From: a virus
Reading direction: 5' to 3' (one strand)
Length of the DNA stretch: 64,000 bases
IMG/VR virus record: IMGVR_UViG_3300046010_015054
Location: 32,001-96,000 of that record
In this document: positions 7,309 to 55,054 of the stretch, in pieces
How positions within the stretch are numbered: position 1 is the stretch's first letter
Layout of the letters: each line of letters starts with the position of its first letter
Made by a program: the position numbers and the translations under genes
Notes under the pieces: model-generated
The model's database searches: none
Seen by the model: the letters and a program-made list of their open reading frames with translations, nothing else
Told to the model about the DNA's origin: nothing

Positions 7309-8253
7309 CTATTGAAAATTGCACAAATTTTTCATGTCTTTAAAAACACAATATTGACAATTCCATTTAGAGGGTTTTGCTTCTTGTTGATGCTTATTAT
7401 AAGTACCATCTTTTGAGAAAGCAAGCTCAATAAACGTATTAAGTCTATTTGTGGCTTGATTTAATTTTATCTTACCAGAAGTAGGCTTATGAGTTTGTAT
7501 TCTTCTATCAGGATACTCACTTTCTTCATTTATTTTTCTTTTTAGAATAAAATATTCTATATCTATATTTTCTACTGGGTAGTCAAATTGCTCAGCAAAA
7601 AATTTTTTATAAAGAATAAGTTGAGAATTTTTTACTTCATCACCTTTTTCTTTTTGTTTCCAACCCCTAGTACTAGTTTTAATATCTATAATTTTTACAT
7701 TTCTAGTATTTTCATTATAAAGTACTAAATCAAGTAAACCTTTATAAAGAATACTAGGGTATCCTGAGTGTGGTTTAAGTATAATTGGGAGTTCAATTCC
7801 TAATAAATGCCAAAATCTTTTACTAAAATATTTACCTTTATTTTTCTTAAACCAATTTATAATAGCTACACCATCATTAAAAAATTCTCTTAGTTCAGTA
7901 GCACTAGAAAAATGGATTTTATTGTTTTTTTCGTAATCTTGTTTATATTGATTACGTAATTTTTCTTCAAATAATCCAATAATATTTTCTCTATCAGCTG
8001 CAGCTATACTTTTACTATACATTATTTGTAGATAATGTTGCAATGTTTCATGCATAGCAGTTCCAAAGGTCATATGAATGCTAAATTCACTTTTATAATG
8101 ACCATCACGATAAAGAAGTGCCCATTTATGAGGACACTGCTCGAAAATTTGATATTGACTAAAAGAAATTACTCTGTTTTTAGTATAATCTATTTCAATT
8201 AGTTTTTTATCTCTTACTTCTTTTAATATACTTGGTTCTTTCTTTTTAGCCAA
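7309..8253 (-). CDS. PD-(D/E)XK nuclease, Cas4/RecB-like with Fe-S cysteines
   Basis: SFSQYQIFEQCP, GTAMH, GLLDL, IIDIKT, QLILY, C-terminal CQYC-x7-C. Confidence 0.85.
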   Translation of the reverse strand: MAKKKEPSILKEVRDKKLIEIDYTKNRVISFSQYQIFEQCPHKWALLYRDGHYKSEFSIHMTFGTAMHETLQHYLQIMYSKSIAAADRENIIGLFEEKLRNQYKQDYEKNNKIHFSSATELREFFNDGVAIINWFKKNKGKYFSKRFWHLLGIELPIILKPHSGYPSILYKGLLDLVLYNENTRNVKIIDIKTSTRGWKQKEKGDEVKNSQLILYKKFFAEQFDYPVENIDIEYFILKRKINEESEYPDRRIQTHKPTSGKIKLNQATNRLNTFIELAFSKDGTYNKHQQEAKPSKWNCQYCVFKDMKNLCNFQ

Positions 8254-8255
8254 AA

Positions 8256-9350
8256 CTATTCTTTTATAAATCTAGTATTTAATTCTAAAATATTTTGAGG
8301 AGATACTTTATTTGTAAATTCTTCTACTACTCCGTTTCTTATATTTTTATTAAATACTATATATTCTCCTTCTAAATCTAATTCATCATAACACCACGTA
8401 AAAGGATTAAGTGAAATGTTTTTATGATAAATTTCTTTCCCTTCTAAATTAATAACCTTACATTCAATCTCCAAGCTATCTTCTTCATTCCAGTAAAATA
8501 AACCTATTTTATTAGTAAGTTCTTTTTTATCATTTTTATGTAAAAGAATTTTACAAACTTTAGGTATATTTTTCCATTTATCTACCCACCCTCCAGGATT
8601 ATTAATAAGATCAAATTTAGAATTAGGATATTGATCTCTAACACTTCCTGGGTGGTTTATACCTTTAAATGGGTATTTTTGTTTTTGGTAATAAAATATT
8701 GTTGGGATAATATATTCAATCCATTTACCATAATAGTTAATTTTTTTACATAAATCCCAATAGTCTTTATCATTATTTACTAGATTAAAACCGGTAAATA
8801 AATCTGTAGAAAAGCCTACCATATGAACATCCATTAATCTATGATGAGGTTTGGCCCAATCTCCTTCTTGACGTTCACCATATAAAAGAAAATGTTCAAA
8901 TGTTTCTAGGTCATTTTTTAAAGATTCTAAATCATTTAGATCAAATTCGGTATCAGCTTCAATTCTAAAAATACGTTTATAACCTAAATTTTCAGCTGCT
9001 GTGCTAGCAAATATAAAACTATTGTAAATATTAGCAGTATGATCTTGAACACCTACTAAGGGTAACCAATTTTCATGGGTACCCATAGATGTTTTTACAT
9101 AAACATAAGGACGTTCATATAATTCTTTATCTAAAAGTTCTTGAGGGGGATGCCCTATCATAAATCCTCCTGTATGATTCCAGTAATGTTTTACTTTAGA
9201 ATCTAACCCCCATGAAAATGAAAATTTATTAAATAAAGCAATTTCATATGGTAAAATTGAATTAAGTTGATCTATTAAATTAGAACATACTTTTGCTCTT
9301 TCTGGGGTAGATAAATAACCATCTACAACTATTAATAGATCTGAGGTCAT
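8256..9350 (-). CDS. hypothetical protein, possible GT-A-like enzyme
   Basis: 364 aa ORF; GYKRIFRIEAD acidic motif; glycan island context. Confidence 0.4.
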   Translation of the reverse strand: MTSDLLIVVDGYLSTPERAKVCSNLIDQLNSILPYEIALFNKFSFSWGLDSKVKHYWNHTGGFMIGHPPQELLDKELYERPYVYVKTSMGTHENWLPLVGVQDHTANIYNSFIFASTAAENLGYKRIFRIEADTEFDLNDLESLKNDLETFEHFLLYGERQEGDWAKPHHRLMDVHMVGFSTDLFTGFNLVNNDKDYWDLCKKINYYGKWIEYIIPTIFYYQKQKYPFKGINHPGSVRDQYPNSKFDLINNPGGWVDKWKNIPKVCKILLHKNDKKELTNKIGLFYWNEEDSLEIECKVINLEGKEIYHKNISLNPFTWCYDELDLEGEYIVFNKNIRNGVVEEFTNKVSPQNILELNTRFIKE

Positions 9351-21263: not shown

Positions 21264-22138
21264 GCCATGATATTAATTTCTTTATCTATTCTAAAATTAG
21301 CATGATATTGATATTCTTCAAGAATAATTGTTATAACTCCCTCGTTCCCTCCAGCATATGTTGAAGCTTTCTCGTAAAGTGCTTTAAATAATTCATCATA
21401 ATCATTAATATTAGAATCTGTAATTATCTGGCGGATATTTTTCCAGTTTTTACTGGTTTTAAGTTCGTTTATAACTTGCTCAATGTAATTATTCGATACA
21501 AGTATTGATTTATCTAAAGTAAGTTTATTATCAATTGTAGATAATTGAGCTGTACCTAAAATTTTACGAACATCTGGGTAAAATTGTTTAACAATAGTGC
21601 CTAATGATTCTTTATCCCAATCAATATTTTCTTTATCTAAAATACCTGCTACGTGTCGCGCAACATCCTTCATTGAAGGAGGTATAATTTTAAGTACCTG
21701 ACAACGTGATTGAAGAGGGTCAATAATACGCTCAACAAAGTTACAAGTTAAAATAAAACGAGTACTTCGTGAAAAAGTTTCAATAACACTTCTTAATGAA
21801 GCTTGGGCTTGAATTGTTAAGAAATCTGCTTCGTCTAAAATAACTACTTTGAGTGGTTTGAACGAAGCAACCGAAGCAAAACCGGACACTTTGTCCCTAA
21901 TTGTTTCAATTCCTCTTTCGTCTGAGGCATTGATGTAAAGATGGTCACAATTAAGGTTATTAACAATGAGCTTAGCAAGAGTAGTTTTGCCAGTTCCAGC
22001 GGGTCCATAAAATATAAGATTTTGAATGTCGTTCTGTTCTAAATATTTAGAAATTGTCAGTTTGACATTCTCATTTCCTACATATTCATCAAGGGTTTTA
22101 CTTCGGTACTTCTCAACAAGTAAAGTATGTTCTTTCAT
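21233..22138 (-). CDS. clamp loader large subunit (T4 gp44/RFC-like AAA+)
   Basis: VEKYR, GPAGTGKTT, NASD, LDEAD, SRC motif. Confidence 0.95.
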   Translation of the reverse strand: MKEHTLLVEKYRSKTLDEYVGNENVKLTISKYLEQNDIQNLIFYGPAGTGKTTLAKLIVNNLNCDHLYINASDERGIETIRDKVSGFASVASFKPLKVVILDEADFLTIQAQASLRSVIETFSRSTRFILTCNFVERIIDPLQSRCQVLKIIPPSMKDVARHVAGILDKENIDWDKESLGTIVKQFYPDVRKILGTAQLSTIDNKLTLDKSILVSNNYIEQVINELKTSKNWKNIRQIITDSNINDYDELFKALYEKASTYAGGNEGVITIILEEYQYHANFRIDKEINIMACIAKVIQAL

Positions 22139-38056: not shown

Positions 38057-39139
38057 CTAATATTTTATAGTCAAATCATCATCTGATTTATTAAATTTTT
38101 GTTTAATTTTTAATTCTCGGGGGCTGAGTTGGGGTTGGGTTTGGATATTTTCTTTATATTCATTTACAAGCTCAACTAAACTTTCAGTAGGTTCAGCTAA
38201 AGTAACTTTTTTTTCTTCAGAAACATCACTTTTAATATCTTCTAAAATAATTTCTTCAGGAAAAATCTCAGGTTCATTATTAGAAACTTCTTGTACTGGG
38301 GTAGGTTCTGGGGTGGTTTGTTTTTTAAACCAATTAAATAACTTCATATCATTTTTATTTTTAGAATTTTCAAAAGCAAAATTAGCTGCTATAACTAATG
38401 CAATTGCTAAAGGATCAAATACAAATATTATAATTAATAATAACCAATTTATGATCCTATCCATGGCAACGCCCGTTAAGTTAGAAAGAAATTTTAAAGG
38501 TCCTAATTCACTTGCGGCTTCACCATTAGTTTTAACTTCTAATATTTGAGTTTCTAAACTAAATATAGAATCATTAACTATATTTAATTTATTTGTTAAA
38601 GCATCATCCGATTTATTAGCAGATTCAATTTGTTTAATAGATGCATTATTAGATCTAACTACTAAATTACCATTCTTATCTGTATATTGAGTAGTTGAAC
38701 CTTTAGATAATGTACCTTTTAATTCAGCTAATGATTGTTTTTCTTGGATAATATTATTACGATTATCTTCGTATAATTCTTTTTTAGTTTCTAATACTTC
38801 TATTTGTTGAGTAACAAAACCATCTTTATTTGCTGTTTCTTGATATGCTGCTGATAAAAAACCATAAATACCCATAGAAGTAATTAAAACAAGGATAGTA
38901 GCAGCTATTGTTAAATAAATTTTTAACATTAAAGGTAAAGTTTTTCTATACTGATAAAGTAAAGAAACAATAATTAGTTTAGCTATTTCTAGAGAAGTTG
39001 CCATAATAATTACAGCCAAACTAGCACCTGCGAAAAGTTTACTAAGGCCGCTTACTGAATAGAAAGCGGCCGAAGCAGAAACTGATAGTGCAGAAAGCGC
39101 TATTAAAAATGGAAATATTTTATTCTGTAGATTTTTCAT
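38057..39139 (-). CDS. multi-pass membrane protein with coiled-coil loop
   Basis: Three N-terminal TM segments, long coiled coil, IIIFVFDPLAIALVIAA TM, acidic tail. Confidence 0.65.
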   Translation of the reverse strand: MKNLQNKIFPFLIALSALSVSASAAFYSVSGLSKLFAGASLAVIIMATSLEIAKLIIVSLLYQYRKTLPLMLKIYLTIAATILVLITSMGIYGFLSAAYQETANKDGFVTQQIEVLETKKELYEDNRNNIIQEKQSLAELKGTLSKGSTTQYTDKNGNLVVRSNNASIKQIESANKSDDALTNKLNIVNDSIFSLETQILEVKTNGEAASELGPLKFLSNLTGVAMDRIINWLLLIIIFVFDPLAIALVIAANFAFENSKNKNDMKLFNWFKKQTTPEPTPVQEVSNNEPEIFPEEIILEDIKSDVSEEKKVTLAEPTESLVELVNEYKENIQTQPQLSPRELKIKQKFNKSDDDLTIKY

Positions 39140-39563
39140 CTTTTTTTCTTATACCTTTATGTTGATCTATTTTATCAAGAATCTCATTTAATAAAGATGC
39201 CTTAATAAAACCAGCCATAGATGCATTTTTAAGTGCACTTATGATTTGAAATATCATAAAAGGTACTACGATTACTTCACTAAGCCAAGCTGTTCCAGTA
39301 AAACCTTGTTCTACCATCAGGATACCTGTTAGAATAACTAACCAAGCAAAGGTATTTCTTAATACTTGTAAAGCTTTACGAGTTTGAAATCCTTCTCTTC
39401 TAGCACCTGCAATCATTCCAAATATGCCATCTAGAAACATAACTCCCACTACGGCTAAATACTGATCAGAATTAGCCATAGTTAGCTTCATAAAATAAGA
39501 ACACATAAAGGTTACACCTGCTGATAACGAAGTAATAGCCAGTAGTGGAAGGTTAAGTTTCAT
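39120..39563 (-). CDS. phage holin (holin-4/toxin-secretion-like)
   Basis: FLDGIFG, 3-4 TM segments, ISALKNA-x3-G, basic C-terminus; follows the endolysin. Confidence 0.65.
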   Translation of the reverse strand: MKLNLPLLAITSLSAGVTFMCSYFMKLTMANSDQYLAVVGVMFLDGIFGMIAGARREGFQTRKALQVLRNTFAWLVILTGILMVEQGFTGTAWLSEVIVVPFMIFQIISALKNASMAGFIKASLLNEILDKIDQHKGIRKKDEKSTE

Positions 39564-39571
39564 TATTGTTA

Positions 39572-40039
39572 TTATTTGTAAGGTTCGTAAACAGTTTTAC
39601 CTGCAGAATTTCTTACTGCACGTAAAATTTGTTTTCTTTGAGGACCACCTTTTTTATAAGATACGTGAACCCAATCTGGTGCTGTTTTAGTACCAAATTC
39701 CCAAATTAACTGATCAAAGTTTAAGTTTTCTTTGATGTAATTAAAGATTTCAGCATTAGATGGACCTTTATGCCCGTCCATATCAATATCAATTGCTTCA
39801 CCTTTTGAGTGTTGTGAAGTAGCTGAACCACCTACTGCTTTATTTAAAGCATCACTTCTATATCCTGAAGATAAGAAGATAGGTACTCCATAATGTTCTC
39901 TAATAGGTTGGAAAATATTTTGAGCTAATTCTTTAGCTGCTTCTAAATGAACTCCCTTTGGAGTATTATCAATACCTTTTCTTTTTGCGGTATCTGATTT
40001 GCTAAATTCAGCGACTGAAAGATTTTCGGATAACATCAT
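39572..40039 (-). CDS. peptidase M15A endolysin
   Basis: SSGYRS, LNKAVGG, SQH, EAIDI, WVHVS Zn-peptidase motifs. Confidence 0.9.
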   Translation of the reverse strand: MMLSENLSVAEFSKSDTAKRKGIDNTPKGVHLEAAKELAQNIFQPIREHYGVPIFLSSGYRSDALNKAVGGSATSQHSKGEAIDIDMDGHKGPSNAEIFNYIKENLNFDQLIWEFGTKTAPDWVHVSYKKGGPQRKQILRAVRNSAGKTVYEPYK

Positions 40040-40041
40040 GA

Positions 40042-40209
40042 TTATTCTTCGGTTTTAGGGGTTTCTTCTTGTTTTACTTCAGTATCACTATCAATTTTAT
40101 CAATAGTATCTACTTTTTCTTTTAAGTTACCTAGCTCATCAGCTAATGTTTCATCTAATTTTGTTTTACCTAGTAAAAATTTCAAAATTGCATTAAAAAT
40201 ATCTTTCAT
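40042..40209 (-). CDS. 55-aa protein with amphipathic N-terminus and acidic tail
   Basis: Not in track; MKDIFNAILKFLLGKTK...EETPKTEE; fills the gap with TAATG coupling. Confidence 0.6.
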   Translation of the reverse strand: MKDIFNAILKFLLGKTKLDETLADELGNLKEKVDTIDKIDSDTEVKQEETPKTEE

Positions 40210-40466
40210 TATCCTATTTCTTCTTCGTTAGACTTATCTTTTTTATTACCACCAAAAATTTTACCTGCTTCAGCAATACCGAAAGCACCAAGAGTGATGA
40301 TTACAAAAGAGTTAAAGATTGTATCACTGATAACGAGTTCTTGACCCATAATACCAGTTGCGACGTCTGCAAGAGCTGCAATACTCATTACTGAGAATGA
40401 CATAAAGCCAACGATAGTTTTTTCGTTGAAATCATTCTTGTCTTTAAAAATGTCACTAAATGCCAT
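40209..40466 (-). CDS. small two-TM membrane protein (holin-like)
   Basis: Two hydrophobic helices and a charged C-terminus; upstream of endolysin; late motif at 40519-40526. Confidence 0.55.
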   Translation of the reverse strand: MAFSDIFKDKNDFNEKTIVGFMSFSVMSIAALADVATGIMGQELVISDTIFNSFVIITLGAFGIAEAGKIFGGNKKDKSNEEEIG

Positions 40467-40525
40467 AATTTTAAATTTAAAAGTTAATTTAATACAACTA
40501 TTATATAAAACATTTATTATAAATA

Positions 40526-41470
40526 TTACCTACTAAATCTAAAAGCTAGACCCGCATAAGTATATTGTATAATATCTGGGGTTCCTTTATTGTAAGAAGC
40601 CCAAGCATCTAAATCGTCTGTTGAATAAACATTTACTTTAGTACCACCAAATACTTTTACAGATTTAGTTAAGTTAATTCCTACCTCACCTCCTAAAGTA
40701 GTAAAGATTGTCCAAACTCCTCCTGCTGAATTAATTTCCATTAAAGGGTAGTTAGGATTACTAGCTGAGGTTAAATAACGATGGGCATGAGCAAATCCAT
40801 TACCTCCAAAAATAGTAATACTTCCATCTTTACTTACTGCAAAATTATAAGCTAAGACTAATTCAGCTGAATAAAGTGTAGCTCCAAATGTTTGGGTGTC
40901 TTCTATTGGAGTGGTTCGAGTACCTCTAATAGTGCCTTGAGTTAATATACCTCTAGTTTCCCAATGTTTATCAGGCGAATATGTTAAAGCTTGAGTACTA
41001 CCTTCTATGGCTTCAATAGATTCACTTCTTAAATCACTAAATGAATTTAAAGAACCTCTAGAAAAACTCATACCCCATCTTGATAAACCTTTAACAGGTG
41101 GTAGACTTGGTACTTGAATTTCTTTAATTACAGTATCAATTTTAACAATTGGTTGTTGATTCTTTATAATCGAATCTAATTCAGTTACTTTAGCACTTTT
41201 TTGACCTGCATAAATATGAAGTTCATTAAAACTAGAATCTAAAACAGCATATTCGGCTTTAGCAGAATCATACTCAGTTTTAATTTCGTTAAGTTTTGTT
41301 TTTTGCTTAGCAATAGTCTGGTTAAGATAAACAGCCTGTGACTTAAGCATAGTCACAGTTGTATCTTTACCTTTAATTAACTCGTAAGGATATCTAGTTT
41401 GAGCCGTCAGACTCGAGTTCAAAAGGAGTAGCGGAAGGAGAAACAGAATCGATGATAGCCTTGACTTCAT
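40526..41470 (-). CDS. signal peptide + coiled coil + C-terminal outer-membrane beta-barrel protein
   Basis: SPI-type signal (LTA|Q), heptad region aa ~45-105, about 8 amphipathic strands, STDDLD loop, terminal YAGLAFRF beta-signal-like strand. Confidence 0.65.
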   Translation of the reverse strand: MKSRLSSILFLLPLLLLNSSLTAQTRYPYELIKGKDTTVTMLKSQAVYLNQTIAKQKTKLNEIKTEYDSAKAEYAVLDSSFNELHIYAGQKSAKVTELDSIIKNQQPIVKIDTVIKEIQVPSLPPVKGLSRWGMSFSRGSLNSFSDLRSESIEAIEGSTQALTYSPDKHWETRGILTQGTIRGTRTTPIEDTQTFGATLYSAELVLAYNFAVSKDGSITIFGGNGFAHAHRYLTSASNPNYPLMEINSAGGVWTIFTTLGGEVGINLTKSVKVFGGTKVNVYSTDDLDAWASYNKGTPDIIQYTYAGLAFRFSR

Positions 41471-41729
41471 TTAGTTGTGTTGTTAAAATTAGTTTTTCTT
41501 CTTGCAACGTCTGGATTGACTCCTTCATTCCAACAACTTTTTCTGTAGTAGATTTATCAATAGCCTTAGCCATTTTAGTGGCTTGTTTCATTTGTTCCTG
41601 TGATTTTTGAAGTAGGAACTTAACTTCATCAACTTTAGGCTCATTTGGTTTTTGAGCCGTAACTGAAATTATAGTGGTAGCTAAAATAATAGATGCTACT
41701 CCTATAATGTAAGTTTTTTTAACGTCCAT
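41394..41729 (-). CDS. exported or membrane-anchored coiled-coil protein (spanin-like)
   Basis: N-terminal hydrophobic segment (VTA|Q) and long heptad repeats; overlaps the next gene by 77 nt. Confidence 0.5.
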   Translation of the reverse strand: MDVKKTYIIGVASIILATTIISVTAQKPNEPKVDEVKFLLQKSQEQMKQATKMAKAIDKSTTEKVVGMKESIQTLQEEKLILTTQLNEVKAIIDSVSPSATPFELESDGSN

Positions 41730-41980
41730 TATTTCATGATTTGAAGCATTTCAACCTTGCTTATCATGTAACCTAATGTAGAATCACTTCTACGAACGTG
41801 TTCAGTTAATAACTCAATTTTTTGGTCTTGACCAGCTACACGCTCGTCGTATTTACCGATCAAATCAGAATTGCTTAATTTGATATCGACGTATAAATAA
41901 CCTATAGCAACAATTACTAAAAACAGTAGACCTTTTGTAGGATCTTTTGAAAATTGTTCAAAAGTAATAGGTAGTTTCAT
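41729..41980 (-). CDS. inner-membrane-anchored coiled-coil protein (i-spanin-like)
   Basis: Single TM GLLFLVIVAIGYLYV then helical heptads; late-type motif GTATTTAT at 41997-42004. Confidence 0.5.
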   Translation of the reverse strand: MKLPITFEQFSKDPTKGLLFLVIVAIGYLYVDIKLSNSDLIGKYDERVAGQDQKIELLTEHVRRSDSTLGYMISKVEMLQIMK

Positions 41981-42004
41981 AATTTATGGGTTTATTATAA
42001 ATAC

Positions 42005-42027
42005 AAAGAGGTGTCCGAAGACACCCC
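42005..42027 (-). terminator. rho-independent terminator after nrdA
   Basis: GGGGTGTC-TTCG-GACACCTC-TTT (cUUCGg tetraloop). Confidence 0.8.
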
Positions 42028-51524: not shown

Positions 51525-52145
51525 TTAACCTTTATAAAATTTAGTATAATCAAAATTTAAATATAAACCTAAACCTTTTACGCCATATTGTTTTTCAACA
51601 TTACCAGTAGTTCTAGCATTAGTTTTATAAACTTCTTCTTTTACACCGACTAATTGCCAAGGTAAAATAATAGCTAAAACCGATTGATATAAAAATTTAG
51701 TTTCTTTATTAATTAAAGAATTATAATCTCCTTGACTAATTTCAACATATCTTTCACCACTTAAAGTTTTATAAAAATATCTGTTAAATTGAGTATTTTT
51801 ATAATCTTGTTCTGTTGGTTTTGCAAAATAAAATTTTGGATAAATAGGTTGAGGTGTATTTGGATTTTGTTTAGTTACTATTGAGTAAGCGTAGTTTGGT
51901 TCTGTAAATCTAGCATCAATCACTAAATCATTATCAGCATTTGTTTGAGTTGGATCTAATGCAGTTTCACTAATTGGAATTAATGGAACTGAATTTGGGT
52001 CTTGTGGGTTTTTACCTGTAAATTTTTGATCTAAAGAAGTTTCATAGTAATTACCCACATATAATTCTTTTGTTATAGAATTAATAAATTCACCCCCATT
52101 TGTAAAGAGGTTAGTGCGAATTTGGGTTTTAGGATAATAGATCAT
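51525..52145 (-). CDS. putative baseplate/virion protein
   Basis: Last gene of the tail operon; YVGNYY, PTEQDY, RYF, WQLVG motifs. Confidence 0.5.
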   Translation of the reverse strand: MIYYPKTQIRTNLFTNGGEFINSITKELYVGNYYETSLDQKFTGKNPQDPNSVPLIPISETALDPTQTNADNDLVIDARFTEPNYAYSIVTKQNPNTPQPIYPKFYFAKPTEQDYKNTQFNRYFYKTLSGERYVEISQGDYNSLINKETKFLYQSVLAIILPWQLVGVKEEVYKTNARTTGNVEKQYGVKGLGLYLNFDYTKFYKG

Positions 52146-55054
52146 TTTCTAACAAATAATGCTCTTTCAGTAGTTCTTCTTCTTAAAAGACCCGGAAGTA
52201 CTTTTCCTCCTGCTTTACTATATTCTAAAATTTTATTAGCTGCGGCTGGTTTATTACCAGCTACAATTAGATTTTTTAATCCTGAATTTTTAGACCATCC
52301 TGCTCCTAAATTATAAGTAAATGATAAAAGAGCATCCCATTCATTTTGAGTAAAGGTAATCTGTTTACCACCTGTATTTTTAGGTAAAAAATTATTTTTT
52401 ACTGTAAATTGAAATCTTTGAAGGTCTACTCTTAATAAATTAACTGCTTCACTTTCAGTAACAACATCTGTAGAAGTTATAGCTCTACCTGCTCTTCTTG
52501 TTGTACCATAACCAATAGTCCAAACTCCAACAGAATCTTTATAAGCTTTTGATCTAAATCCTTCAAATTGTTTAATTAGATTAATAGCATTATTACTAAA
52601 AGATATATCTTGAACATTTTGTTCATTATTATTTACTTCTTGATAAGTAAATGGGGCAGCTTGTACCTTAGGTAATTCAGTTGCATTACCTGAAGTAGTG
52701 TATAATTGATTTTCTGTGGGTCTGTTTGGTGATTTGGGTACAAATAGAGTTTCTAATTCAGTAGTCCAAGTATTATTATTAACTTTATGTACAATATTTT
52801 TTAAAATATAACTTAAATTATCAGCATATCCTGCAGGTAAGAAATCAGATTGTACTTCAAATTGTTGAAGAATTTTCATACCTGAAATTCCATCAAGGGT
52901 TAAATTTAAATTGATAGGAATAGCAGGTAAAGTAGTACTTATAGCATTATTTTGAAGCGCTTCAATAGCATTATTATACTGAACTAAATTTTTAATTAAG
53001 TTCTTTTGAGTTTCATATACATCTGGATTCCATTTGTAAGTATTATAAGTTTCTATAATGTTTTTATCATAAGCTAAAGCTGCTTCTTCATAATTAGCCA
53101 ATAATTCATTAGCTTCAGGGTTATTTAAAGCATTATTTTTTTCTTTTTCAAATTCACTCAAGGCTTGAACAGATGATATACCTACAACAGGTGAAGGTTC
53201 AGTACTTGGTCCTGATTTTTGGGTGTTAGTGCTACTAGTAAGTTTTTCAGGAAATACTCTATCAATTAAACCTTCATTTAATTTACTAAATGCCGTAGCA
53301 TCCTCAGAGATACTAGCGCCATTAGCTTGAGCCCCAATTGCTACAGTTGACTGTAAATCATTATCTAGTTGAGTTTGAAAAGAGAAATCTCTAACAAAAC
53401 TACCTTCTTCTAAACCAAAATTGCTTTTAACCCCTAAAAGTCTAATAGGAGTATTTTCTACTTTTTTCTTAGTAGTATTTTGAATTAATTTATTTTGATC
53501 TGGGAATGTTCTACGCTCAATTATTTTAATAGTGTTAGTATCAGCATCAATGTATGGTTCTAGTTTATTTATGTAACCAAAAGATTCATTAATGCCATCA
53601 CAAATAGCTTTTAAAAAATCAAAATAATTTACTTTGTTATTATTATCTATTAATTCATCTAATTTACTTAATATAAATTCAAAATTAATATAAACATTCA
53701 TTAATAATCCAATAGGATAACTTAAAACTTCTCTATTAAACCCTACTTCAGCAGATGAATATAATTCTATAGGTACATTAGGATTAAATGTAGAATCTAT
53801 TTTTTTCATTATACAGATTCTTGGATCAGCCGCGAATTGAAGTCTATCTAAATAAAGAAAATTAGTTTGAGTATCAAAATCAAAATCAATATAAGGAGGA
53901 TATTCTGTTTCACTAACAAATTTATAATTTCCCTTATTATTATTAAATATTTGAGAATTCCATTGCAAAAATTTTAAAAAACTTCCTAATCTATAATAAA
54001 ATTGAAAATTATCTTGGTCATCTGAGAATTTAGCTGCATAACAATGTGCTACATTAGGTGTAGGGGTGAATTTTAAATTTAAATTAGGATTAGTTAAATA
54101 AATTCTCCACTGATTTTGTTCAGTATTTTCAGAGATATTAGTATTATTTTGCTTAATTAAAAATAAATGTTTACCTATAGCATGTTTATCTTTATGTCTC
54201 TGAAAGATGTCTACAGGTTGATTAGCATCTGTTCCTGTTGTTTGAGTTGTTGTATTTAAATTGTTAACTTTTAAACTTTCAATTAAATCGCCATAGGAAA
54301 TTAAATCAAGTGTGATATCATAATGTCCATCTTTATTAATAGCCCAACTATAATTTCTTACTCTACCAATCATAGCATCATAATTGGCACTATTAATTTT
54401 TCTTAATTCTAAAATTTTATTATGAACATCAAAATGACTTTTACCTTCTTGAAAAATAGAGTTTTGTAATGTTTTGGATATTTGACTTAAACTAGGATTT
54501 TCTTCATCTGTACCATTTTCCCAGTATAAAGTATTACCCCATTCAACAACAACAGAATATCCTAAACGTAAATAAAGTAAATCTAAAATTTCAAATTGTA
54601 CTTTATTATAAGCTTTTAATTGTATTTGTGCTTCTCTTAATGAACCATCATTTTTGTGTTTAACAATTAATGAAGAAACACCTGGAATTGGGTTAATACC
54701 AAATTCGGTACCACCTAGACCATAAGCAAAATTATTAATTAAAGAAGTATTATTTGTAACTCCAGAAAATATTTGATTAGGAGTAGTCCTAGTATCTGTT
54801 AATCCGGTATCTAATACAAAAGCTTTAGCTAAGTCTGAGCCTTTTAGATTTGCATCTTGTAACCAGCTGTATCTTTTTAGGTTTGTAGTTTGAGTATCGA
54901 TAACATTTACCATACTAGTAACTTTAATAAATCCTGTTTTAGCATTTTGCCAAACAAGATTTTCGTTACTTCTACCAGCTAAACCTAATTTTTGCTGTCT
55001 TTTTTTAATTTGATCGTTAACAAACTCATCAAAACTTTCTCCTATAAGGTTCAT
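52142..55054 (-). CDS. baseplate hub-like tail protein with C-terminal GH24 lysozyme
   Basis: 970 aa; C-term IKQFEGFRSKAYKDSVGVWTIGYGT (E-x8-D-x5-T triad), ALLSFTYNLG, LPGLLRRR; hub-like LTLDGISGM and WTTEL motifs. Confidence 0.8.
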   Translation of the reverse strand: MNLIGESFDEFVNDQIKKRQQKLGLAGRSNENLVWQNAKTGFIKVTSMVNVIDTQTTNLKRYSWLQDANLKGSDLAKAFVLDTGLTDTRTTPNQIFSGVTNNTSLINNFAYGLGGTEFGINPIPGVSSLIVKHKNDGSLREAQIQLKAYNKVQFEILDLLYLRLGYSVVVEWGNTLYWENGTDEENPSLSQISKTLQNSIFQEGKSHFDVHNKILELRKINSANYDAMIGRVRNYSWAINKDGHYDITLDLISYGDLIESLKVNNLNTTTQTTGTDANQPVDIFQRHKDKHAIGKHLFLIKQNNTNISENTEQNQWRIYLTNPNLNLKFTPTPNVAHCYAAKFSDDQDNFQFYYRLGSFLKFLQWNSQIFNNNKGNYKFVSETEYPPYIDFDFDTQTNFLYLDRLQFAADPRICIMKKIDSTFNPNVPIELYSSAEVGFNREVLSYPIGLLMNVYINFEFILSKLDELIDNNNKVNYFDFLKAICDGINESFGYINKLEPYIDADTNTIKIIERRTFPDQNKLIQNTTKKKVENTPIRLLGVKSNFGLEEGSFVRDFSFQTQLDNDLQSTVAIGAQANGASISEDATAFSKLNEGLIDRVFPEKLTSSTNTQKSGPSTEPSPVVGISSVQALSEFEKEKNNALNNPEANELLANYEEAALAYDKNIIETYNTYKWNPDVYETQKNLIKNLVQYNNAIEALQNNAISTTLPAIPINLNLTLDGISGMKILQQFEVQSDFLPAGYADNLSYILKNIVHKVNNNTWTTELETLFVPKSPNRPTENQLYTTSGNATELPKVQAAPFTYQEVNNNEQNVQDISFSNNAINLIKQFEGFRSKAYKDSVGVWTIGYGTTRRAGRAITSTDVVTESEAVNLLRVDLQRFQFTVKNNFLPKNTGGKQITFTQNEWDALLSFTYNLGAGWSKNSGLKNLIVAGNKPAAANKILEYSKAGGKVLPGLLRRRTTERALFVRK

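Follow-up and report, generated by a model that had tools for sequence, protein, structure and literature searches.

A possible spanin-like gene trio with a modelled outer-membrane barrel in the lysis cassette of a virus related to Flavobacterium myophages

Two-component spanins, such as lambda Rz/Rz1, P2 LysB/LysC and T4 PseT.3/PseT.2, combine a type II inner-membrane protein carrying a periplasmic helical domain (i-spanin) with an exported partner at the opposite side of the periplasm (o-spanin), and are encoded by adjacent or overlapping genes that lie in or beside the lysis cassette and are expressed late (PMC6139136). Unimolecular spanins (u-spanins, T1 gp11 type) present an N-terminal signal and a C-terminal hydrophobic helix within ~100–160 amino acids (aa). 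Among spanins, overlapping gene pairs are a typical feature, both known types need the signal of an outer-membrane lipoprotein, and ~96% of the two-component systems have a periplasmic Cys for intermolecular disulfides (PMC6139136). In Bacteroidetes phages, only unimolecular spanins have been annotated so far (PMC12596118, PMC8776804). We found no description of a barrel-anchored spanin in the literature, and the word "barrel" is absent from Kongari et al. 2018 (PMC6139136). Here, we analyse three adjacent genes, called gpA, gpB and gpC, in a stretch of 64,000 nucleotides (nt), hereafter the window, which corresponds to bases 32001–96000 of IMGVR_UViG_3300046010_015054, a 170,105-bp viral genome with a completeness rating of 100%. 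According to the tail sheath (55% identity), the cultured phages closest to it are Flavobacterium myophages of 160 kb, the "immuto" group.

Like the two-component spanins, this trio comprises a predicted type II inner-membrane protein with a periplasmic helical domain, partners exported towards the other side of the periplasm, and adjacent, overlapping genes that stand beside the lysis genes and behind a late-type motif. In addition, related loci present a true lipoprotein directly after gpA, as the two-component systems do. The trio differs from them in having three subunits instead of two, in lacking a lipobox, Cys residues and any sequence similarity to them, and in its outer-membrane anchor, modelled as an eight-strand barrel located on a separate protein. 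Compared with i-spanins, gpA is very small (83 aa) and displays a conserved cytoplasmic motif.

We tentatively propose that the trio could be a spanin-like, envelope-spanning lysis complex, in which a barrel on a separate subunit would take over from the lipid by which gpB is anchored in relatives. This proposal is based on the position in the lysis cassette, the late-type motif, the combination of inner-membrane, periplasmic and outer-membrane-anchored helical subunits, the overlapping genes, the relatives with a lipoprotein gpB, the exchangeable anchor and the lack of any other candidate in the complete genome. From these observations we infer the membrane locations, the contacts between gpA, gpB and gpC, and the membrane-disrupting function.

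The three proteins of the module

The window is AT-rich (~31% G+C) and its minus strand holds nearly all genes. The three open reading frames (ORFs) of the trio are on this strand, between the gene of the ribonucleotide reductase large subunit and the lysis genes, with the following features.

41729–41980, minus strand: gpA, 83 aa, proposed inner-membrane subunit (ORF and relatives)
41394–41729, minus strand: gpB, 111 aa, proposed periplasmic connector (ORF and relatives)
40526–41470, minus strand: gpC, 314 aa (ORF and relatives)
41399–41470, minus strand: predicted gpC signal peptide, residues 1–24, ending LTA/QT, within the 77-nt gpB overlap in a different frame (sequence and conservation)
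41153–41398, minus strand: conserved N-terminal tip of gpC, then a predicted long helix, residues 37–103 (alignment and low-confidence model)
40529–41089, minus strand: predicted C-terminal eight-strand outer-membrane-type beta-barrel of gpC, residues 128–314 (model and structure searches)

gpA presents one hydrophobic segment (approximately residues 17–31), a ~52-aa helical tail, predicted to be periplasmic, with an R/K-S-D-S motif, and a conserved motif, P-I-[ST]-F-E-Q-F-S-K-D-P, on the presumed cytoplasmic side. This topology was assigned from hydrophobicity and charge only, and the N-in orientation fits the K/R-rich N-terminal extensions found on gpA relatives. The cytoplasmic motif and the membrane helix are conserved far more strongly than gpB or gpC. 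The gpA and gpB genes abut, while gpB and gpC overlap by exactly 77 nt (65–113 nt in relatives). gpB is composed of a signal peptide ending VTA/QKP, a helical body and a conserved C-terminal P-F-x-L-E motif. The signal peptides of gpB and gpC both end in a small residue followed by Gln (VTA/Q and LTA/Q), a motif that is kept in relatives and that corresponds to the Q-rule described for signal peptidase I substrates in Bacteroidetes, where a small residue precedes Gln at the cleavage site (PMC5837995, PMC10653852). These predicted cleavage sites also fit a Bacteroidota host. The original prediction, which had described a protein with a single transmembrane helix and a helical tail, followed by an exported coiled-coil protein and a protein with a cleavable signal peptide, the genes of these two overlapping by 77 nt, agrees with these results down to the ORF coordinates.

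The most conserved stretch of gpC directly follows the signal peptide and reads Y-P-x-x-x-I-x-G-x-D-T-x-V, then Q-A-x-x-x-N; D36, T37, V39 and Q45 are invariant across 33 diverse homologues. It leads into a long helix (residues 37–103) in a low-confidence full-length AlphaFold2 (AF2) model built from a 16-row alignment, with a predicted local distance difference test (pLDDT) of 34. Between this helix and the beta-rich domain there is a linker with 4 Pro in ~20 residues, so that the Pro-rich linker of the original prediction exists, although its enrichment is modest. Automatic gene callers begin gpC at Met41, giving 274 aa. The longer form of 314 aa is the real one, since all related loci conserve the first 40 residues, signal peptide included, at the protein level. 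Public calls for gpC and many of its relatives likewise start at Met41 (274–278 aa) or at internal Leu codons; such calls lose the signal peptide and the most conserved motif, and the database entries of the gpC family are therefore systematically truncated.

No family membership was found for gpA, gpB or gpC in Pfam, PHROGs, NCBIfam or PADLOC beyond coiled-coil noise. A complex prediction with mature gpB and the periplasmic part of gpC scored 0.06 against a mark of 0.32, a result that weighs neither for nor against their binding.

The C-terminal domain of gpC

The barrel was modelled by AF2 from gpC residues 123–314 using a 15-row alignment that covers two subfamilies at 33% identity. The resulting model presents eight long up-and-down strands, with a pLDDT of 65 and a predicted template modelling score (pTM) of 0.62. 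In Foldseek searches of the PDB, OmpA, OprG, NspA, Ail, OmpW and OmpX ranked first (probability 1.0, E 1e-6 to 1e-4), and the exhaustive comparison with VIA-align recovered OmpW at Z 13.4 (root-mean-square deviation, rmsd, 3.1; 162 aligned), the OmpA barrel at Z 13.2 (rmsd 2.4; 135 aligned), NspA at Z 13.2 and the OprF barrel at Z 12.5. The top eight rows of this comparison (Z 11.3–13.4) all correspond to transmembrane beta-barrels; one was designed de novo, and the other seven are natural proteins of the outer membrane. In the ESM Atlas, the model reached TM-scores of 0.68–0.73 to Bacteroidota proteins of the OmpA-family, OMP_b-brl and DUF6089, and the language-model features of gpC also point to OMP_b-brl.

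In the model, strands 4–8 have one face without polar residues, and the two long loops, of 17 and 15 residues, are both odd-numbered and would therefore face outward if the N-terminus is periplasmic. The C-terminus of gpC reads G-L-A-F-R-F-S-R, in which G-L-A-F-R-F fits the pattern G-x-x-aromatic-x-aromatic and is followed by S-R/K; the beta-signal-like motif is thus sub-terminal rather than terminal. The barrel with a terminal aromatic beta-signal of the original prediction is hence supported in its ~8 strands by AF2, Foldseek and VIA-align, whereas the last residue is Arg or Lys, two residues beyond G-x-x-F-x-F. The other two lineages of barrel-type gpC likewise end in 2–7 polar residues. 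In the third lineage (L081:4508–5320 and L170), the proteins are 262–271 aa long and end in H-L-[MI]-I-T-R-K-I, and their beta domain, barely alignable with that of the window gpC, has the same eight-strand pattern.

A different interpretation of this domain is a soluble periplasmic eight-strand barrel of the lipocalin or YceI type, which would bind a ligand or the cell wall and provide no outer-membrane anchoring, an idea that overlaps with the other alternatives discussed below. The rather polar character of strands 1–3, the pLDDT of only 65 and the presence of YceI and BcnA/B at Z 9–10 could be explained in this way. The same is true of the family searches, where no curated barrel hidden Markov model (HMM) of Pfam (OMP_b-brl and relatives) reached threshold for the gpC domain, the divergent homologue P0057 matched OMP_b-brl only below threshold (E 0.19), and PDB sequences searched with a profile of the barrel alignment gave nothing meaningful. 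In contrast, soluble barrels appear in VIA-align only from Z 10.4 down, and the top eight rows there are transmembrane beta-barrels; all top Foldseek and Atlas matches are barrels of the outer membrane as well. The non-polar face of strands 4–8, the loop pattern, which follows the outer-membrane rule, and the G-x-x-F-x-F motif near the C-terminus also argue against a soluble barrel, and in near relatives a hydrophobic membrane helix takes the place of this domain, the kind of exchange that an anchor would be expected to show. We therefore regard a soluble domain as improbable.

gpC is thus predicted, from a model of moderate confidence, to consist of a signal peptide and an eight-strand barrel of the OmpA/OmpW/OmpX class. 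Its residues 128–314 resemble the OmpA N-domain, OmpW, OmpX/Ail/Lom and NspA (Pfam OMP_b-brl, DUF6089) in the modelled fold, the signal peptide and the aromatic C-terminal strand and, like other small eight-strand barrels, combine short periplasmic turns with long outer loops. They differ from these in the lack of a family HMM match at threshold and in the two extra residues after the last aromatic. The predicted periplasmic coiled coil of gpC is N-terminal, whereas OmpA has a C-terminal domain instead, and, in contrast to Lom, gpC is encoded by a phage gene inside a lysis cassette rather than by a lysogenic-conversion gene.

Lysis-cassette linkage and exchangeable anchors

The genes and motifs surrounding the trio are listed below.

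42008–42027, minus strand: terminator-like hairpin with an 8-bp G+C-rich stem, a TTCG loop and a T-rich tail, 3' of the ribonucleotide reductase large-subunit gene (sequence reading)
41991–42003, minus strand: late-type promoter-like motif TATTTATAATAAA, 11 nt 5' of the gpA start (sequence scan)
40513–40525, minus strand: second exact TATTTATAATAAA copy, just 3' of the gpC stop codon and 46 nt 5' of the gene for the two-helix protein (sequence scan)
40209–40466, minus strand: holin-like protein (85 aa, two membrane helices, charged tail), which accompanies the trio in relatives
40042–40209, minus strand: conserved accessory gene, whose 55-aa product has an amphipathic N-terminus and a tail rich in acidic residues and Lys
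39572–40039, minus strand: endolysin, Peptidase_M15_3 (E 8e-23; phrog_894, E 3e-37)
39120–39563, minus strand: membrane protein of the Phage_holin_4_1 family (family match)

The trio is therefore directly upstream of holin and endolysin genes, as originally predicted. The late-type motif noted there is also real: TATTTATAATAAA has five exact copies in the window, all intergenic and on the coding strand, which precede gpA, the two-helix gene, the virion genes for tail sheath and tail tube, and one further gene. At one mismatch or less, 11 matches were found against 2.5 expected, a count reached by 0 of 100 shuffles.

The association with lysis genes extends beyond this genome. An endolysin is encoded within 3.5 kb after the module in 55 of 68 distinct related loci (GH19 in 33, M15 in 11, PG_binding plus GH19 in 7 and GH24 in 4). 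Among the closest relatives of the window, the trio remains in place although the type of endolysin changes (M15, GH19-like or PG_binding+GH19-like), and in some genomes the two-helix holin-like gene directly abuts or overlaps gpA.

These observations bear on the idea that the trio could serve late envelope remodelling or guarding with no role in lysis, by superinfection exclusion, receptor masking or outer-membrane tethering. Such a role would suit three proteins that are all envelope-targeted, and functions of this kind are established for phage-encoded barrels of the outer membrane (Lom, Ail-like) and for lipoproteins (Cor, Llp). It agrees poorly with a late-type motif common to tail genes, with a place by holin and endolysin genes that is fixed in those 55 loci whatever the endolysin type, with the strong conservation of gpA, unlike that of fast-evolving exclusion genes, and with the lack of any PADLOC family match. 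We give this role only a slight chance, and the exclusion or receptor-blocking alternative of the original prediction lost ground on account of the motif and the fixed lysis-cassette place.

Three further genes can be mentioned here. The last gene of the lysis cassette (38057–39139, minus strand) overlaps the holin_4 gene by 20 nt and encodes a 360-aa protein in which several membrane helices surround a long coiled-coil loop; it is conserved, at 357–411 aa, among the close relatives, and no family match was found for it. The N-terminus of the 55-aa protein reads M-K-x-I-F-x-A-I-L-K, and its homologues are found after gpC or before gpA in related loci; it appears to be a mobile small accessory gene, possibly with a role as cytoplasmic lysis regulator. 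Adjoining the baseplate and tail genes, a 970-aa protein (52142–55054, minus strand) matches endolysin families over its last 150 residues (phrog_7, E 4e-45); this is probably a virion-associated enzyme that hydrolyses the cell wall at entry.

Regarding distribution, the barrel family of gpC is tiny. A profile search of 1.8 billion representative proteins retrieved only ten matches, and three of these are short proteins that share the N-terminal part of gpC with a hydrophobic helix replacing the barrel. gpA is much more widespread, with 236 and 162 confirmed loci in two IMG/VR scans of viral contigs. Against 50,697 cultured and deposited phages, megablast and tblastn searches with the region, gpC and gpA found no relative except a weak gpA match in an uncultured 635-kb phage, and Flavobacterium phage immuto has no gpA match. 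A scan of 185,579 species genomes for gpA gave one match, L170 (JBIKXY010000388.1), an 11-kb contig carrying gpA, gpB and a barrel-type gpC in a lake-metagenome-assembled genome labelled Pirellulales, which is probably mis-binned phage DNA. Prophages thus gave no assignment of a host.

The anchor variants were tabulated over 83 distinct viral loci (the endolysin and u-spanin-like counts refer to 68 loci), as follows.

gpB not a lipoprotein, gpC helix-tailed: 33 loci
gpB not a lipoprotein, gpC barrel: 15–16 loci
gpB lipoprotein (lipobox and Cys), gpC absent: 21 loci
gpB lipoprotein, gpC helix-tailed: 6 loci
gpB not a lipoprotein, gpC absent: ~5 loci

gpB is thus a lipoprotein in 27 of the 83 loci, 21 of which are without gpC, and gpA together with a lipoprotein gpB presents the architecture of a canonical i-/o-spanin pair. 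Against the profile of non-lipoprotein gpB, the L083 lipoprotein scores 36 bits; other lipoprotein forms match this profile more weakly, and are colinear and syntenic. On the gpA+gpB tree, barrel forms fall within the helix-tailed ones, and at least three changes are needed to account for them. Moreover, G002, which is complete and has the helix tail, and its sister genome G003, which has the barrel, share the same gene context and differ only in the gpC anchor. The original prediction had raised the question of whether relatives keep the barrel or swap it; it is swapped for a C-terminal hydrophobic helix, and in a third of the loci gpB is a lipoprotein.

The helix-tailed gpC has a 17-residue hydrophobic stretch reaching the very C-terminus, with a mean of 0.17 K/R after it and 2.0 before it. 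It resembles unimolecular spanins in its N-terminal signal, C-terminal hydrophobic helix and size, and differs from them in having a signal peptidase I site instead of a lipobox and a helical rather than beta-rich middle; the window gpC presents a barrel in place of the tail helix.

In the lysis region of the window, a liberal six-frame lipobox scan found no lipobox ORF, and the complete 170-kb genome encodes no protein that combines a signal or lipobox with a C-terminal membrane helix, the unimolecular spanin architecture. The absence of a lipoprotein from the trio and the lysis region, as originally predicted, is thus confirmed, and the suggested search of the full genome recovered neither a canonical spanin nor any other candidate for outer-membrane disruption. 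Three small lipoproteins of this genome located outside the lysis region (G000:C1:2091–2255, 7785–8468 and 21825–22028) were considered as hidden o-spanins and rejected because they have no adjacent inner-membrane partner and no lysis context. The first of them (minus strand, outside the window) is acidic, with 54–61 aa across homologues and C-[AQ]-S-T-E after the lipobox; its homologues at G002:C1:84952–85137 and G003:C1:68176–68340 lie ~1.4 kb 5' of gpA, a distance of ~71 kb in this genome. It may be surface-exposed, as the residues after its Cys resemble a Bacteroidota surface-export signal. The third (plus strand, also outside the window) is a 67-aa ORF with the textbook lipoprotein signal M-K-K-L-L-L-I-G-V-A-L-V-M-A-S-C. 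It stands by itself on the opposite strand, with small early-type genes around it, and could be an exclusion lipoprotein.

A proposed spanin-like role and its significance

Several results weigh against a spanin-like function. The trio has no lipobox, and the empty six-frame scan means that this spanin-defining feature is missing from the whole lysis region. With no Cys in gpA, gpB or gpC, a periplasmic Cys for disulfides is lacking as well. No relation to spanin families was found by sequence in Pfam, PHROGs or NCBIfam, the best match being phrog_739, "Rz-like spanin", at coiled-coil level (E 0.016, 16 bits). The commonest variant, helix-tailed gpC with a non-lipidated gpB, is without an evident outer-membrane anchor, and in the barrel itself the polar strands 1–3 and the moderate model confidence count on the same side. 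The association between a lipoprotein gpB and the absence of gpC is striking in raw counts (gpC present/absent in 6/21 loci with a lipoprotein gpB versus 49/7 of the others by automatic and ~50/5 by hand-corrected counts). It was not accepted as statistical evidence, as only ~3 changes of the lipoprotein state occur on the gpA tree. The strong conservation of the cytoplasmic motif of gpA is atypical of an i-spanin and points to a conserved partner in the inner membrane or the cytoplasm, in keeping with holin control.

Finally, a classical u-spanin-like gene occurs beside the module in 13 of the 68 related loci, in at least five lineages. These ORFs (for example L155:2191–2646, L060:7321–7740, L065:6971–7420, L049:3570–4001 and L105:931–1377) encode 139–159 aa, with a beta-rich middle between a lipobox and a C-terminal helix that carries a K/R tail, in contrast to the helix-tailed gpC of the same phages, which has no K/R after its tail helix, and have no PHROG or NCBIfam family match. 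Where they are present, the module would be redundant or would have another, lysis-related role. The idea that a u-spanin-like gene never accompanies a barrel-type gpC (0 of 15–16 loci versus 13 of the rest) was also tried; the difference is not significant, and the complementarity fails too because the complete helix-tail genome G002 likewise lacks a u-spanin-like gene.

Such observations could be accommodated by a module of lysis timing or holin control, in which gpA would be a small single-helix holin or the partner of one, gpB and gpC would act as membrane-tethered periplasmic regulators, and the outer membrane would be left to other factors. T4 RI, the antiholin of holin T, offers an analogy. 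The higher conservation of the gpA motif and helix relative to gpB and gpC, as expected for a conserved membrane partner, the two-helix holin-like gene abutting or overlapping gpA in some genomes and the coexistence with u-spanin-like genes in 13 loci are all in line with this possibility. In addition, a helix-tailed gpC with a non-lipidated gpB would put all parts at the inner membrane, and a weak language-model lead connects gpA with BhlA-type holins (score 0.77, below the reliable range). In contrast, it is hard to see why the regulator of a holin in the inner membrane would have a lipoprotein anchor or a barrel in the outer membrane, the cassette already has two holin-type proteins, the trio shows no similarity to T4 T, RI, RIII or any holin family, and this genome has no other candidate for disrupting the outer membrane. 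We thus consider holin control unlikely.

The lipoprotein-free spanin-like complex of the original prediction is therefore retained as our tentative reading: the architecture, the anchor swaps, the endolysin linkage and the lack of a canonical spanin in the genome speak for it, while the function itself stays an inference. According to this spanin-like model, gpA would be inserted N-in in the inner membrane, with its ~52-residue helix in the periplasm. gpB would be exported and its signal peptide cleaved, leaving a periplasmic helical connector. gpC would be exported as well, and the beta-barrel assembly machinery (BAM) of the host would insert its eight-strand barrel in the outer membrane, so that the long helix and the conserved N-terminal tip would hang into the periplasm. 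The trio would be expressed late, together with holin and endolysin. The cell wall would keep the complex apart until the endolysin removes it; the complex would then collapse, bring the membranes together and break the outer membrane as Rz/Rz1 do. The barrel, on a separate subunit, would stand in for the lipid anchor of gpB found in a third of the related phages.

In a broader and more doubtful extension, Bacteroidota phages could possess a modular spanin with interchangeable outer-membrane attachment, provided either by a lipid on gpB or by a gpC with a BAM-inserted barrel or a bare C-terminal hydrophobic helix. If so, the trio of the window would be the first lipoprotein-free, three-subunit, barrel-anchored spanin. 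The helix-tailed forms would then mean either that a helix can be tail-anchored in the outer membrane of a bacterium or that tail-anchored helices zipper together in a SNARE-like manner.

Spanin-finding software is built on the lipoprotein-signal rule, and ~1 in 7 phages of Gram-negative hosts are without a recognisable spanin, with Bacteroidota phages especially poorly served. If the spanin-like reading is true, a lysis module with a lipid, helix or barrel anchor would explain part of this gap. It would also reveal the use of the host BAM pathway for lysis by a phage, and the anchor swaps among related loci would form a natural set of variants with which to test the requirements of membrane fusion in lysis. 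Even with a different role, gpA, gpB and gpC are a new, abundant and unannotated component of the lysis cassettes of flavobacterial phages.

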